From IMG/VR virus record IMGVR_UViG_3300029258_001887: a stretch of DNA of 64,000 nt, one strand, 5' to 3'. The stretch's first letter is position 1, and the number at the start of each line of letters is the position of its first letter. The position numbers were made by a program, and so were the translations under genes. Source of the DNA: a virus. Below the pieces are notes generated by a model. That model was not told the origin of the DNA, did not search any database, and saw only the letters and a program-made list of their open reading frames with translations. Shown piece after piece: positions 1,760 through 9,968 of the stretch.

Positions 1760-2524
1760 CTAAGCCTCCCTACATCGGGCGGCTTCGACTGTTTCCATAC
1801 ACAGGTGGCAGTTCATTCCCTCCGCAAGTTTTTCCGACCGCCACCCCCACACATACTCCTGAGCGTCACCCCAAATGGTTTCGCTGAAGTGTTTCCACGG
1901 GAAGTACCCGAACGGGCATCTCCCTATCATCCCATCCTCCGTGATGATCATGTTGCACATTCGTTCACAGGAACACTGGACGGTTCCACGAGGCGCAAGA
2001 CCGTTATCCCACGCCCTGCCGATTGGTATGATGTCGTCTATGCCCAAGTCTCCAGTCTGGACAAGTTCGACACCAAGATCATTTTCGTCTAGTAACTTGA
2101 CAGCACGATCACCTGGAGAGCTATGCCACTGATCTTCGGACACAGCAACCTCAATGTGTTCGCACACAGCGACCAGTTCCTCCATTGCGCCAACGAATCT
2201 GCCTATGTCGGCGACTGTGTTTGCGAAGAATCCGTTGGTGACCAACCTAATCCGGTCTCGACCGCTGGATAATGCTACCAGCATTTCCGGGTAGTTGTCC
2301 AAAACGGTTACTTCGCCGCCCATGATATTTAGTACGATGGTCTTGGGCACCTACCGATTGATTGCTGCACAGGTTTCGAGAGACATTTGACCCACACACT
2401 CAGGGCCAGACCGAAAACAGCAATGCCGACATCTTTGGCTACACTGATTGGTTACTCGCAGTATACAGGCGTTCGACGCGGTATCGCCGTTCCATCTCTG
2501 AAACCACTCGTCGTGACTGGTCAT
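1760..2524 (-). pseudogene. radical SAM protein interrupted by one in-frame TAG at 2351-2353
   Basis: ATG 2524 gives MTSHDEW...RVTNQCSQRCRHCC (CxxxCxxC)...AINR*, then in frame VPKTIVLNIMGGE, TNG and a C-terminal SPASM-like Cys cluster. Confidence 0.75.
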
Positions 2525-2892: not shown

Positions 2893-3552
2893 CTACATTG
2901 CTCCCATCTCATTCGTCAGCAGGTTGACATCGATTTCCTTATCGACATCACACCCACGCAACCACTTGGCGAACTGTGCGACCCTCAATCCTGCCGAGAC
3001 GTTAGCACAGTAGATGGTTGTCTTCGCAGTACACGCTCCCTGGTACGCCTCCGCTGCTGGGAACAGTGTGGTCGCATAGTGCTCACGGGAAGCCTCGTCA
3101 TGAACGGTGAAGATTCGCACATACTCTGCGCTCATTCGACCGTCGATGAAAAGGTCTGCCCGATTCCTGACTGCCTCGAAGATGGCTTTCCTGGTGTCGA
3201 TCTTGTCAACACAGCAGAACATGACGCCACCAGTAAAGTCGATCGATCTGAACTTTCGGTTGATGACTTCGATCTGGATTGCCGAGTTGATAGAGACACA
3301 CAGGTCTCTCGTGGCTTCGACCTTCGGCCTGCCAAGATCAGCCTCGTGGTATCCCTGCGCCGCAAGATTCTCTGGGCGTACCGTATCAGGATCGATGAGA
3401 GTAATCCTTGGTACCCCGATGGCTGCCAACTGAAGTGCTACCTGACGACCGCCAGCACCGACGCCGACCACCGTTACCCTCGTGGTTTGCAGCTTCTCTG
3501 GCGGAATCAGTTCTCTCTGACGGATGTCTCTATTTTCGATTACTGTACTCAT
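2893..3552 (-). CDS. ThiF/E1-like ubiquitin-activating enzyme
   Basis: RQ..VTVVGVGAGG (GxGxxG), IDPDTVRPENL..Q, CVD..R, FIDGRM, candidate catalytic Cys in GACT; start MSTVIEN overlaps the JAB stop. Confidence 0.9.
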   Translation of the reverse strand: MSTVIENRDIRQRELIPPEKLQTTRVTVVGVGAGGRQVALQLAAIGVPRITLIDPDTVRPENLAAQGYHEADLGRPKVEATRDLCVSINSAIQIEVINRKFRSIDFTGGVMFCCVDKIDTRKAIFEAVRNRADLFIDGRMSAEYVRIFTVHDEASREHYATTLFPAAEAYQGACTAKTTIYCANVSAGLRVAQFAKWLRGCDVDKEIDVNLLTNEMGAM

Positions 3553-4499
3553 ACCGCTTCCTCCATTGCCAGTTCGCGTTCGTCTGCGTACCTGTTGGCC
3601 CACAACACGACTTGCGTTACCCAGTGTTCGTTCGGAGGGGTTGTTTCGATGAACTCGTCATCACCCTCCAGGTCTTCGACGTACCACTGTTCCCTGATGG
3701 GGTCATAGAAAAACCACACACCATCTTCGTCATCCCAGTATGCAACGTCGCCGTTGGAGTCCCAATGACAATCGATGTCGTCTACGGTAGAACTCCCATC
3801 GCCTGCTGCTGCAATCTGTCGATCAAGTTCTTCCTGTTGGGTTGTCCACCTGTCGTGTTCTTCACACCACCAGAGGGGGTCTTCGTAGCCGTTGGCTGGA
3901 AAGGAACCAGCGCCACTAGACGCCGCACCTTCCTTTCCTGTCATGCGGAACTTCTGTTCCACGACCTTGGCCTTGTACTCCGTTTCCCATGCCTGCGTGT
4001 CGGTGCCACCGAACGGGACTGTCCAATCGACGGCGACTTTGATTTCTTTGATCACTCCAGGCCCGACGTTGACTTTCAGACGACAGTACGCCGCGCCACC
4101 CTCGGCGATGATGAACATGATCGCCCAGTTCGGGTGAGAAAACGCTGCTACGAAATTCTTCTCGTCTGTACCTGACGGGGTGGGACTGTTCCCCGGATGT
4201 GTGTGGATGAGGATGTTGGAATAGGCCCACGGTGGGAGCCCAGTATCGAGCATCCTGTCCATATAATCAGCGCCATCTTCTGGGTCGAGGTCGAAACTAG
4301 CACCTGTGCATTCCTGTTTGATCAGGACGAAATCGGTCACTAGTAGTGGGTCTTCCGTGGCTGTGACACCGTATCCGGCGACTTCTGTATCCCCACGGTC
4401 CCTCATCCACAAGAGTTTCGCCCAGGCGTATGGCGTGAACCGTAGCTGTTCTCCGAACGTCATTTTCGGGGTCATGAACTCAGACATTTTTGTCTCCAT
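3549..4499 (-). CDS. JAB/MPN+ (JAMM) metallopeptidase with acidic C-terminal tail
   Basis: Catalytic Glu in TEVAGYG and JAMM motif HTHPGNSPTPSGTD (HxH-x7-S-x2-D). Confidence 0.88.
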   Translation of the reverse strand: METKMSEFMTPKMTFGEQLRFTPYAWAKLLWMRDRGDTEVAGYGVTATEDPLLVTDFVLIKQECTGASFDLDPEDGADYMDRMLDTGLPPWAYSNILIHTHPGNSPTPSGTDEKNFVAAFSHPNWAIMFIIAEGGAAYCRLKVNVGPGVIKEIKVAVDWTVPFGGTDTQAWETEYKAKVVEQKFRMTGKEGAASSGAGSFPANGYEDPLWWCEEHDRWTTQQEELDRQIAAAGDGSSTVDDIDCHWDSNGDVAYWDDEDGVWFFYDPIREQWYVEDLEGDDEFIETTPPNEHWVTQVVLWANRYADERELAMEEAV

Positions 4500-4512
4500 T
4501 GTGGTTGTCCCT

Positions 4513-4522
4513 GGTGTATAAT
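4513..4522 (+). promoter_or_regulatory. GGTGTATAAT putative late promoter
   Basis: Same motif precedes portal, protease and tail tube genes. Confidence 0.55.
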
Positions 4523-4550
4523 ACAGCAGGCGGATTTACTGCCAGGGAGG

Positions 4551-5234
4551 TTGATTGTGAGAACCAAAGCAAGCAAAGAAAAAGAAAAGGCTCGACAAAG
4601 ACAGCAGTACCAAGAACGACTAGCTCAAGGTCTGTGCCCCAGATGCGGCGGAACGCCCGCCACTGAAAAAAAGTTTTGTGCTTCTTGCTCCACAAGGACG
4701 TGTGGTCGAGATAAGCAGCGACGACTTGACCGTCTGGCGAAGGGGTTGTGTCCTCAATGTGGAAAACGAGAATGTGCCCCAGGTCGGAAGAAATGTGTCG
4801 TCTGTGGTGAAGCCGGTCGCAGGAACGTGAAAGCACGAGAATCCCGACTGGTGAACGACGGTCTTTGTACTCGTTGTGGCCAACATCCGTTTCTTCAGTC
4901 CATGACCGACAGGACTTCTCGGTATAGAGAATGTCAGGAGTGCTACCTAAAGCGCACTGCCAAGAACAATCTGGGTTCTGAAGATTTTGCGCCATTACTG
5001 CTGGCCAAGTTAGAGGCCCAGCAGTGGATGTGTCCCTATACCGACGAGATATTGGTTCTCGGGCACAACGACTCGATTGACCACATTCTCCCAAGGTCAA
5101 GATTTCCTGACTTGGCGACTGACCCAGAGAACGTCCAGTGGGTGTTGCGTGATGTCAATTCAATGAAGAACCAACTCACCAACGATGAGTTCCTGGGACT
5201 TGTTGCCATCATCTACCGTCATCGGTTACGATGA
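4551..5234 (+). CDS. HNH homing endonuclease with N-terminal Zn-finger repeats
   Basis: Three GLCxxCG repeats; CPYT..SIDHILPRS..NVQWV..VNSMK; antisense to the flanking operon. Confidence 0.85.
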   Translation: MIVRTKASKEKEKARQRQQYQERLAQGLCPRCGGTPATEKKFCASCSTRTCGRDKQRRLDRLAKGLCPQCGKRECAPGRKKCVVCGEAGRRNVKARESRLVNDGLCTRCGQHPFLQSMTDRTSRYRECQECYLKRTAKNNLGSEDFAPLLLAKLEAQQWMCPYTDEILVLGHNDSIDHILPRSRFPDLATDPENVQWVLRDVNSMKNQLTNDEFLGLVAIIYRHRLR

Positions 5235-6545
5235 CTCATTGGTCACTCCCTCTAGTAGACAGTTGTGTTCACGCTCGCAGGAACCGCACATTGGAGTCCC
5301 ACAGTGCTCACATGAGTTATCGTTACACCTATTACAGACGGTCTTGTCGCATTCAGAACACGTCTCCTGACACCCCTTGCAGATGTCCTGGCTACATTCC
5401 TCGCATCTTTCATCGACACAGGCCGAGCAACACTCGTCTCCACAACACCCGCATGTGATTGTGCAGTCCTGACACACGGAATCTCCGCAGTACGCACATG
5501 CCGACTTGCACTCGTCACAATATGCCCCGACGCAGATAGCGCATCCGCTCACACACGACGAACACATTTGGTTATCGCAATCATGACATGTGCTTCCACA
5601 TCCATGACAGAGTGTCTCTTGACAACCATAACACGTTGTGCTACATTCACCGCAACGCCACTCGCCGCATTCCGTGCAGCATCCACCACCGACATCGCAA
5701 TACTCGCAGTAGTTGTTCTGACATCCTTCGCACCAGCAACCGCTTTCGTAGCTACGCCACTCTTCGCATCCCTCACAGTAAAACTGACCCTCATGATCTG
5801 GATCGTACCATTCACTCAATCGTTCGTATGGCGAAGCCTCGTTATACGTTCGCAGAACTGCTTCGATGACCCTGAAGTAGTCCTCTAGCCGTCCTTGACA
5901 CAGAGCATCCTGAGAAGGAAGGCCACCAGCGCCGATACAGAGCTTACCGCCGGACACATGTGGATGAGAGTATCCGCCTGGAGATTCAATTTCGTTGATC
6001 GATTCGATACGAAGACTGTCCAGGGGATGTGAGAGGTTGACGTGTATCCAGAAATCCCCCAGGAACACTTCCTCGTGCTCATCGCTCAGGGTAACATCCT
6101 TGACCAACACGGACAGGACATTGCACCTGAACTTGACTTCTGGCCACGCGCTGTTTATTATCCGAATTTCGTCGATTGCTTCTTTGGGCGACAGCACGGT
6201 GACGATCTGTTTGGTTACCAATGACTTGAGCATTGCTGTGGCACTCTGTGTGCCGTGTATGACATCATACCCAAGGTCTGGGATCAGAGCGGTGGCGATT
6301 CTCTCATACGCCGATGCACAGACAATACCCATGTGTGGTTCTGTGTCCCACTCGTTTTGCTGGATTCTCTGCGTTGAGCCAGTGAAGAACCTTCCAGCCC
6401 ACATCTCCATCTGTGACGCTTTGTCGTTCACCCTACGGAGACAGTCGAGGATAGACGTTTTCCCAGAATCCACAGGAGACCGGGCCTGAGACAGCAACCA
6501 ATCCCTGTATTTTATGGCCGCACGCCGTATCAGCTTTTCGTTCAT
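5226..6545 (-). CDS. prokaryotic E2/UBC-like conjugating enzyme fused to a Cys-rich (about 21 CxxC) C-terminal array
   Basis: HPHVSGGKLCIG resembles the UBC HPN...C active-site motif; located with Ubl, JAB and E1. Confidence 0.75.
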   Translation of the reverse strand: MNEKLIRRAAIKYRDWLLSQARSPVDSGKTSILDCLRRVNDKASQMEMWAGRFFTGSTQRIQQNEWDTEPHMGIVCASAYERIATALIPDLGYDVIHGTQSATAMLKSLVTKQIVTVLSPKEAIDEIRIINSAWPEVKFRCNVLSVLVKDVTLSDEHEEVFLGDFWIHVNLSHPLDSLRIESINEIESPGGYSHPHVSGGKLCIGAGGLPSQDALCQGRLEDYFRVIEAVLRTYNEASPYERLSEWYDPDHEGQFYCEGCEEWRSYESGCWCEGCQNNYCEYCDVGGGCCTECGEWRCGECSTTCYGCQETLCHGCGSTCHDCDNQMCSSCVSGCAICVGAYCDECKSACAYCGDSVCQDCTITCGCCGDECCSACVDERCEECSQDICKGCQETCSECDKTVCNRCNDNSCEHCGTPMCGSCEREHNCLLEGVTNESS

Positions 6546-6609
6546 GGTGAATCCCCTTTATACAGGCTGATGAGCCTAACTTTGCCGAAAACAGGCTGAT
6601 TCGCCTGAC

Positions 6610-6831
6610 CTATTCTGGTTCGTCTGGCCTAGCCAAGCACTCCGCGAGCCCATCTACATAATCTTCCAAGTGTAGAAGGACTTCGCTGTATCCGAACGCA
6701 TGACCATCTTCCCATGCCATGTGGGACAGCCACCCACGGAATTTCTTGGGGACTCGCGCCAGAAGCTTGGTTTGCCTTCGTGTAAACTCTTCCTCAGTCA
6801 TTCGGGGTACTGGACCGCGTTGCTGGGTCAT
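6610..6831 (-). CDS. hypothetical protein
   Basis: ORF MTQQRGP.. with GGAG RBS. Confidence 0.5.
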   Translation of the reverse strand: MTQQRGPVPRMTEEEFTRRQTKLLARVPKKFRGWLSHMAWEDGHAFGYSEVLLHLEDYVDGLAECLARPDEPE

Positions 6832-6841
6832 TATTGACTCC

Positions 6842-6886
6842 GAAGAAAGAGGGGCGGGGGGTGCGTTCCCCCCGGCCCCCGCCTCC
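6842..6886 (-). terminator. GC-rich hairpin plus U-rich tract downstream of the Ubl gene
   Basis: Minus strand GAGGCGGGGGCCGGGGG-loop-CCCCCGCCCCTC followed by TTTCTT. Confidence 0.55.
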
Positions 6887-6909
6887 ACCAGACGCCCTAC
6901 GGCGTCATT

Positions 6910-7143
6910 CTACTCACCCTCGACCTTCGTCGGAGCGAGAGAAACCCGATCGCCGTCCTGGAGCACGTAGTCCCGGTGCGCCTCGACGGTCGTGCCGTTC
7001 GCACGAACCCGAATCGTGAACTCATCCGGGTCGCCATCGAAGGAAACCTCCAGGAACTTCTCAAGAGTCGTACCCTCGACCACAGGAACACGCACGGGCA
7101 GGCCCGCTCCATCATTCGTTACCAGCGTTACCTCGATCATCAT
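6910..7143 (-). CDS. ubiquitin-like beta-grasp protein (ThiS/MoaD/Ubl)
   Basis: 77 aa, IRVRANG...VLQDGDRVSLAPTKVEGE; Gly is the penultimate residue. Confidence 0.85.
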   Translation of the reverse strand: MMIEVTLVTNDGAGLPVRVPVVEGTTLEKFLEVSFDGDPDEFTIRVRANGTTVEAHRDYVLQDGDRVSLAPTKVEGE

Positions 7144-9890: not shown

Positions 9891-9891
9891 A

Positions 9892-9964
9892 TGCCCCTGA
9901 CCGGGTACGATCCGGTATCTGCGGCTTGAAGGGCCGCTGTCCTATCCATTTAGACGACAGGGGC
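9892..9964 (-). tRNA. tRNA-Glu(TTC), atypical; CCA not encoded
   Basis: GCCCCTG/CAGGGGC acceptor, GTCT..GG..AGGAC D arm, GCGGC-CCTTCAA-GCCGC anticodon arm, ACCGG-ATCGTAC-CCGGT T arm; 73 nt. Confidence 0.85.
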
Positions 9965-9968
9965 AAAG

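Follow-up and report, generated by a model that had tools for sequence, protein, structure and literature searches.

A candidate ubiquitin-like conjugation cascade with a minimal E1 and a zinc-rich E2 in a large phage

A four-gene cassette in a large phage

We analysed a stretch of 64,000 nucleotides of the IMG/VR virus record IMGVR_UViG_3300029258_001887, referred to here as the window, which carries at positions 2893–7143 a candidate cassette for the conjugation of a ubiquitin-like protein (Ubl). An original prediction, made from the sequence, had read four co-oriented genes at this site as a complete Ubl, E2, JAB peptidase and E1 set. All four open reading frames (ORFs) are present on the minus strand between 2.9 and 7.1 kb at the coordinates listed below. 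Each of them was supported independently, including the E2, which had been proposed from an HPH..C motif. The genes are therefore real, but the prediction has to be corrected in one respect: they are not contiguous, as a 92-residue ORF and an HNH gene on the opposite strand interrupt the series. The parts of the cassette are as follows.

6910..7143, minus strand: Ubl precursor, 77 amino acids, ThiS/MoaD-like, with Gly76 followed by one residue (Glu77)
5226..6545, minus strand: E2-like carrier, 439 amino acids, comprising a hairpin, a ubiquitin-conjugating (UBC) core and a zinc array; 64 homologues
5796..6212, minus strand: predicted UBC (E2) core domain, motif HPHV..(4)..LCIG
5229..5795, minus strand: C-terminal array of 21 CxxC motifs, part of the E2
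3549..4499, minus strand: JAMM/JAB metallopeptidase, 316 amino acids, Prok-JAB family with JAMM motif
2893..3552, minus strand: E1 adenylating enzyme, 219 amino acids, with a single ThiF/MoeB domain (Pfam ThiF)

The window also contains terminase, portal and tail-fibre genes, which mark it as phage DNA, and the IMG/VR contigs with relatives of the cassette are 65–181 kb long. This agrees with the proposal that the virus itself carries the tagging system. A contig end that proved to be a host chimera had been named as grounds for rejecting that proposal; this is ruled out, since the cassette lies in conserved phage synteny. Promoter and terminator scans returned only chance-level signals.

Related loci were gathered from public assemblies, from IMG/VR by an alignment-based scan and from reference genomes, and yielded 14 distinct loci. 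Conservation is given over these loci unless another sample is named.

A predicted E2 with a canonical active site

The 439-residue protein had no match in the Pfam, NCBIfam, PADLOC or PHROG libraries, and none of the 65 members of its family matched a Pfam model even at E values of up to 1, UQ_con and Prok-E2_A to E included. Its structure was approached by modelling. An AlphaFold2 model of the whole protein, built with 64 homologues as alignment, had a predicted local distance difference test score (pLDDT) of 90.5. It consists of a helical hairpin (residues 3–110), an alpha/beta core (120–231) and a stack of short beta-hairpins. For further analysis, the UBC core was bounded at about residues 112–250, with Cys203 as the predicted catalytic residue, and the zinc array at 251–425.

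Fold searches with the whole 439-residue model were swamped by matches to the helical hairpin (ESCRT-III-like proteins and coiled coils) and by LIM-like zinc matches, with weak E2 rows only. Because these searches were uninformative, the core was refolded alone. Residues 112–250 gave a model with a pLDDT of 93 and a predicted template modelling score (pTM) of 0.86. The top 12 VIA-align matches of this domain were all E2 chains, the best being UBE2S (Z 7.6; 120 of 139 residues aligned; root-mean-square deviation 3.9), and E2, UEV and RWD chains made up more than 40 of the best 50. The first match in Foldseek was UbcH7 (probability 0.97, TMq 0.56). These matches fit the UBC layout, in which an N-terminal helix is followed by a meander of four antiparallel strands and a pair of C-terminal helices.

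The active-site residues of this core are strongly conserved. His194, Pro195 and Cys203 are invariant among the 65 family sequences and His196 is at least 90% conserved; in the 14 loci all four are invariant. Cys203 lies nine residues past the His-Pro-His, the spacing of canonical E2s, and the invariant His residues all precede it, with none following it in either the 65 sequences or the 14 loci. A profile–profile comparison (hhalign) aligned the family with UQ_con proteins of Planctomycetota over 95 columns (probability 74%, E 2.7e-5), with the His-Pro-His falling on HPN and Cys203 on the catalytic Cys at identical spacing. On the basis of the fold-search list and of this alignment of both motifs, we take the 439-residue protein to be an E2 of predicted UBC fold whose canonical active site is intact. 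The E2 identity that had been proposed from the motif thus gains a domain model and its fold matches; a protein failing to adopt a UBC fold, named beforehand as refuting it, is not what was seen, the model having a pLDDT of 93 and E2-dominated matches.

Both flanks of the core are additions to it. The 21 CxxC motifs of the C-terminus are spaced 7–8 residues apart and could form about ten Zn(Cys)4 sites. Sequence matches of this array to PHD, B-box and RING fingers are marginal (E 0.005–0.1). In the model it forms a rod, which is a possible built-in substrate scaffold or E3-like scaffold. The N-terminal hairpin is the fastest-diverging region of the E2, with a mean identity of 28%.

A minimal E1 and a JAMM peptidase

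Pfam ThiF recognises the E1 at 90.9 bits (cut-off 28.1; E 9.3e-26). Among solved structures, MoeB (4e-11) and UBA7 are its best relatives. The longest frame of the gene starts at GTG 3603; the real start is ATG 3552, the residue at which the relatives begin. This ATG overlaps the JAB stop codon as ATGA and is preceded by GGAGGA eight bases upstream, in keeping with the translational coupling of JAB and E1 that had been predicted. The GxGxxG motif (G47–G52) was likewise found intact, being conserved throughout the 14 loci together with D72, D74, K94, D133 and one Cys. The candidate catalytic Cys sits in a G.CTA motif (C191 when numbered from GTG 3603, C174 from ATG 3552) and is invariant. Members of the E1 family are 217–239 residues long with one ThiF domain each; the E1 of the window carries no second adenylation domain, rhodanese domain or CxxC zinc pairs.

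The JAB protein of the window scores just under the 25-bit cut-off of Pfam Prok-JAB (E 1.3e-4; 22.2–23.4 bits), a family matched by all 14 JAB family members (best 2e-7). Its JAMM motif (E ... HxH x7 S xx D) is complete, with E39, H99, H101, S109 and D112 invariant in 14 sequences. Against the PDB, the family profile finds Rpn11-like, CSN5 and BubCD chains at E values of 0.002–0.1. The catalytic domain spans approximately residues 9–135, and the C-terminal part is variable, acidic and Trp-rich. Residues ~185–316 (window 3549–3950, minus strand) form a poorly conserved third of the protein that is missing from the short chromosomal form described below.

The Ubl as a putative processed precursor

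The Ubl of the window matches Pfam ThiS weakly (E 0.019). The same model is matched by 10 of the 14 Ubl family members, and others match further beta-grasp families (Ub-Mut7C, ThiS-like) weakly; the nearest Atlas clusters are ThiS/MoaD (0.91). Its profile, compared with PDB sequences, gave only chance matches to actin. Pro71, Lys73 and Gly76 are invariant within the motif P.K(V/I)(E/D)G. What follows Gly76 is variable: 1, 2, 3, 4 or 10 residues in most loci, mostly 1–4. In three loci the Ubl is instead fused in frame to a tail of 78–102 residues, a further domain after the conserved Gly (L002, 6452–6916; L010, 4043–4519; L006, 1124–1645). In L004, L008 and L009, the domain that forms the tail in L002 and L010 has a downstream gene of its own. 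The three fusions are reminiscent of ubiquitin fusion precursors.

An invariant Gly followed by variable tails is the pattern expected of a Ubl precursor that is trimmed by a dedicated peptidase. In such a precursor the peptidase would expose the reactive Gly, as has been shown for BilA and BilC of the bacterial Bil system.

A peptidase acting on a Ubl could also form a device for cleavage alone. In phage lambda, the JAB peptidase gpK cleaves the Ubl domain of gpI in tail-tip assembly (Iyer 2006, PMC1779556), so that here too JAB might remove the Ubl domain from a partner, with E1 and E2 unrelated or inactive. The two cases share a phage Ubl domain processed, in lambda, by a phage JAB peptidase, and the three loci with 78–102-residue tails would suit such a device. 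Lambda, however, has no E1 or E2, and its gpI/gpK pair belongs to the tail module and includes an NlpC/P60 domain, whereas the cassette lies outside the tail module, E1 and E2 are part of it in all 14 loci and keep their catalytic residues unchanged, and most Ubl tails are just 1–4 residues long. We regard cleavage alone as very improbable, and trimming as a step in conjugation as the better account of the precursor.

Linkage and distribution of the cassette

The order Ubl-E2-JAB-E1 is kept in every one of the 14 loci, over E2 identities ranging from 26 to 85%, and these four genes alone are universal across them. This degree of co-occurrence is far beyond chance. Seven further chromosomal or element loci keep the same order. 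Mean identity is highest for the Ubl and E1 (65–66%), intermediate for JAB (49%) and lowest for E2 (40%).

Phage relatives found via the terminase carry the cassette in seven of eight near-complete genomes of this lineage (160–181 kb). In one relative, whose genome is 96% complete and whose terminase is 87% identical, E2 and E1 are both missing. The cassette is a lineage-wide but dispensable accessory module, present all-or-none. Nucleotide and protein searches of 50,697 GenBank phage records found neither the cassette nor an E2 relative, and hence no cultured or deposited phage relative.

The family extends well beyond phages. A profile of the E2 core, searched exhaustively, retrieved 2,826 clusters (50% identity) at E ≤ 0.001, and 1,374 at ≤ 1e-10. 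Most members are ~350 residues long, and the neighbours of those sampled are ordinary bacterial genes along with serine recombinases or integrases. Among 301 Planctomycetota genomes, 11 contain the core domain, with a maximum of six copies per genome. Every chromosomal copy examined belongs to a full four-gene cassette, often with an AAA ATPase and a 318-residue protein upstream. This shorter form of the cassette (E2 of ~350 and JAB of ~170–200 residues) is found on integrated elements, in Planctomycetota chromosomes and small contigs (L029–L034, L020, L003); its neighbours are serine recombinases, the conserved AAA ATPase, the 318-residue protein and a DUF2997 gene. As the cassette occurs both in phages and on integrated elements beside recombinases, it is a mobile-element module common to large phages and integrated elements. 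The virus-borne location proposed at the outset stands in this sense, but the system is not exclusive to phages. Planctomycetota are the likely hosts.

The UQ_con cut-off was passed by proteins with HPNI....(I/V)C motifs in 20 of 151 sampled Planctomycetota genomes (13%; L077–L088), and by none in 14 control genomes. Canonical-type E2s therefore seem common in Planctomycetota.

A variant arrangement was seen in L019 (GCA_036704275.1, on a 1.99-Mb contig), where the E2 profile and the JAB profile both match one 440-residue frame (1212–2534), which is followed by a shortened ThiF gene. The double match suggests an E2-JAB fusion.

Comparison with known systems

The closest known system is BilABCD, which shares the gene order and the pre-processing logic. 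In this system, of which there are types I and II, a deubiquitinase (DUB) pre-processes the Ubl before E1 and E2 conjugate it to lysines (Chambers et al., 10.1101/2023.09.26.559546; Hor et al., 10.1101/2023.09.04.556158). Both systems have four separate genes in the order Ubl-E2-JAB/DUB-E1 and neither has an E3 gene. In both, the Ubl ends in a conserved Gly followed by extra residues, which the DUB removes in Bil. The enzymes differ. The Bil E1 combines an inactive and an active adenylation domain with a Cys domain, whereas the E1 of the window is a single 219-residue ThiF domain with no CxxC pairs. In Bil, the E2 has its His after the Cys (CEHH); here, the order is that of eukaryotic E2s, with His-Pro-His ahead of the Cys, and the protein is extended by a helical hairpin and by a rod with about ten predicted zinc sites. 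Bil is, moreover, a chromosomal defence, while this cassette sits in a large phage. Membership of Bil was rejected, since neither a tandem-domain E1 with a Cys domain nor a His-after-Cys E2 is present.

Other systems are more distant. Operons of type 6d have standalone Ubl, JAB, E1 and E2 genes and are sporadic and mobile, but their E2 is without the classical upstream His, their JAB has an N-terminal domain and they include an extra helical protein; the E2 described here matches none of Pfam's Prok-E2 models. In type II CBASS, Cap2 and Cap3 have related E1, E2 and JAB domains, and the best PADLOC matches of our E1 and JAB are Cap2- and Cap3-type models. Cap2, however, is a fused E2-E1 with a CD-NTase as substrate, whereas the cassette has no CD-NTase, a free Ubl and separate genes; membership of CBASS was rejected on the features tested. 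PRTRC was rejected as well: only the PRTRC_ThiF model finds a match, with 33.7 bits where 144.75 are required, and the other three proteins are unmatched by the NCBIfam models (A to F).

At the level of the single domain, the E2 resembles UQ_con (PF00179) proteins in its predicted UBC fold, the HP(N/H) motif, the Cys nine residues on and the Gly after it. It differs from them in having His for Asn in the triad and large N- and C-terminal additions, and the sequence similarity is below detection by HMMER.

The pair formed by E1 and Ubl resembles MoeB/ThiF with MoaD/ThiS. In size and domain type the E1 is like MoeB/ThiF, and the Ubl resembles ThiS/MoaD and carries a C-terminal Gly. Unlike those pairs, the cassette has no sulfur-donor or cofactor genes and no structural zinc motifs in its E1, and it has an obligatory E2 and JAB.

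This resemblance is the basis of a different reading of the chemistry, in which the Ubl is a sulfur carrier: after adenylation its C-terminus would become a thiocarboxylate, from which sulfur would pass to a small molecule, a nucleoside or a DNA modification. A radical S-adenosylmethionine (radical-SAM) enzyme could then be a partner, JAB could trim the carrier or free the adduct (cf. CysO/Mec+ and QbsE/QbsD), and the E2 Cys could serve as a persulfide relay. JAB, Ubl and E1 triads are established in sulfur pathways (Iyer et al. 2006, PMC1779556), the Ubl is ThiS/MoaD-like, the E1 is of MoeB size with MoeB as its best solved relative, and 7 of 14 loci have a radical-SAM gene downstream. That gene is nevertheless missing from half of the loci, while the four cassette genes are never separate, and in the window it has an in-frame stop. 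The predicted UBC fold of the E2, with its canonical His and Cys invariant in all members, argues in the same direction, as does the genomic neighbourhood, where no sulfur-donor or cofactor-synthesis gene lies within 12 kb: among the ORFs in that range there were none for thiamine, molybdopterin or cysteine synthesis, rhodanese or cysteine desulfurase. The original prediction had noted that thiamine and molybdopterin enzymes were missing nearby and had argued from this against a sulfur-carrier role. The observation is borne out and weakens the sulfur-carrier reading as argued, with the radical-SAM gene of 7 of 14 loci on the other side. We consider sulfur transfer unlikely.

Proposed mechanism and role

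The reading that we think likely is that the four proteins make up a self-contained cascade for Ubl conjugation, in which the E1 is of a minimal, MoeB-like kind and the E2 bears a fused rod with about ten predicted zinc sites. Several features weigh against it. The Ubl appears ThiS/MoaD-like by sequence. The E1, at 219 residues, is a minimal MoeB/ThiF-like enzyme with no Cys domain, ubiquitin-fold domain or zinc site, and the Arg of its NLxRQ motif is replaced by Ala (NLAAQ). Enzymes of the MoeB/ThiF type classically yield thiocarboxylates, not E2 thioesters. The E2 reaches moderate scores in the fold searches (Z 7.6; Foldseek E 0.06), though its list of matches is homogeneous. To these comes the clustering of a radical-SAM gene after the cassette in half of the loci (7 of 14).

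In the proposed cascade, JAB would cut the Ubl precursor after Gly76, removing one residue in the window and up to 102 in relatives. The MoeB-like E1, probably a homodimer, would use ATP to adenylate Gly76 and then bind the Ubl to its invariant Cys as a thioester. The Ubl would then be handed to Cys203 of the E2, which would move it onto lysines of target proteins. Because the cassette has no separate E3, targets would probably be chosen by the E2 itself, through its fast-evolving N-terminal hairpin and its C-terminal zinc rod. JAB might also be able to reverse the tag.

The role of such tagging may be pro-viral modification of host proteins or a Bil-like exclusion of rival phages. For the former, we tentatively propose that the phage tags host proteins early in infection, such as defence factors or host Ubl/E2 systems, with the E2 hairpin and ten-zinc rod acting as an E3-like selector. 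The latter would leave the chemistry the same and concerns the target only, not the mechanism: a Bil-like defence module on mobile elements would put the tag on structural proteins of rival phages. The module has exactly the gene order of Bil, it is accessory and all-or-none, and its short form lies in Planctomycetota on integrated elements, by recombinases and at up to six copies per genome. Against a defensive role stand the presence of the cassette in seven of eight near-complete genomes of the phage lineage, the lack of any PADLOC match for E2 and Ubl, and E1 and E2 architectures unlike those of Bil. Exclusion of competitors is thus a possible role, held with low confidence. The identity of the targets would tell whether phages tag host proteins or rival phages.

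To our knowledge, the bacterial Ubl conjugation systems characterised to date (Bil, CBASS Cap2/Cap3) are defences against phages, whereas here the whole predicted cascade sits in a virus. We found no description of a complete phage E1-E2-JAB-Ubl cascade in the literature searched, the coverage of which is incomplete, so that its absence is not proven. Two reviews of jumbo phages (PMC7824862, PMC13282480) make no mention of one, and Asgard viruses have been reported with E1-like genes only (10.1101/2021.07.29.454249).

Four things make the cassette of interest: a virus carries it, its E1 is minimal, its E2 joins a eukaryote-like site to a predicted zinc rod, and the family is large and unannotated. 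Its E1/E2 pair is the most reduced among those compared, and the E2 keeps the HPx...Cys site that the Bil E2 lacks. The pair could therefore serve as a tractable model for E1-to-E2 transfer without a Cys domain or ubiquitin-fold domain. As the E2 family, with its 2,826 clusters, is absent from Pfam, NCBIfam, PADLOC and PHROGs, annotation and defence-finding pipelines miss these systems. Offensive tagging of host proteins, if true, would be the first pro-viral Ubl conjugation system of a bacterial virus, with a new E2-E3 hybrid architecture.

Neighbouring genes

Three further genes lie within or beside the cassette.

6610..6888, minus strand: ORF of 92 amino acids between Ubl and E2, probably no part of the core
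4551..5234, plus strand: HNH (endonuclease VII-like) gene, phrog_1035 (E 8e-11) and Pfam HNH_4
1760..2524, minus strand: radical-SAM gene following E1, its frame interrupted by TAG at 2351–2353; no part of the core

The 92-residue ORF has a homologue in only one of the 14 loci (L010), and its PHROG matches are families of unknown function. The HNH gene, between E2 and JAB, overlaps the E2 stop by nine bases. A similar gene of 240 residues occupies the same spot on the opposite strand in L001 and in the P0025 contig and is missing from the other loci. This shared insertion site and patchy occurrence make the HNH gene a likely homing endonuclease and not a part of the system.

The radical-SAM gene, recognised by a CxxxCxxC motif and weak radical-SAM matches, is possibly linked to the cassette. 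Its single in-frame TAG falls on a codon that encodes Trp in five intact homologues, and the reading frame is otherwise undamaged. The homologue in L010 (8382–9164), a locus with ~80% E1 identity, has TAG at the same codon. The shared stop could be an inherited nonsense mutation, or it could be subject to read-through or suppression by a phage tRNA.

A lone tRNA-Glu (UUC) is encoded at 9891–9965 (minus strand) among the early genes, adjoining a gene for a helix-turn-helix protein on the opposite strand.

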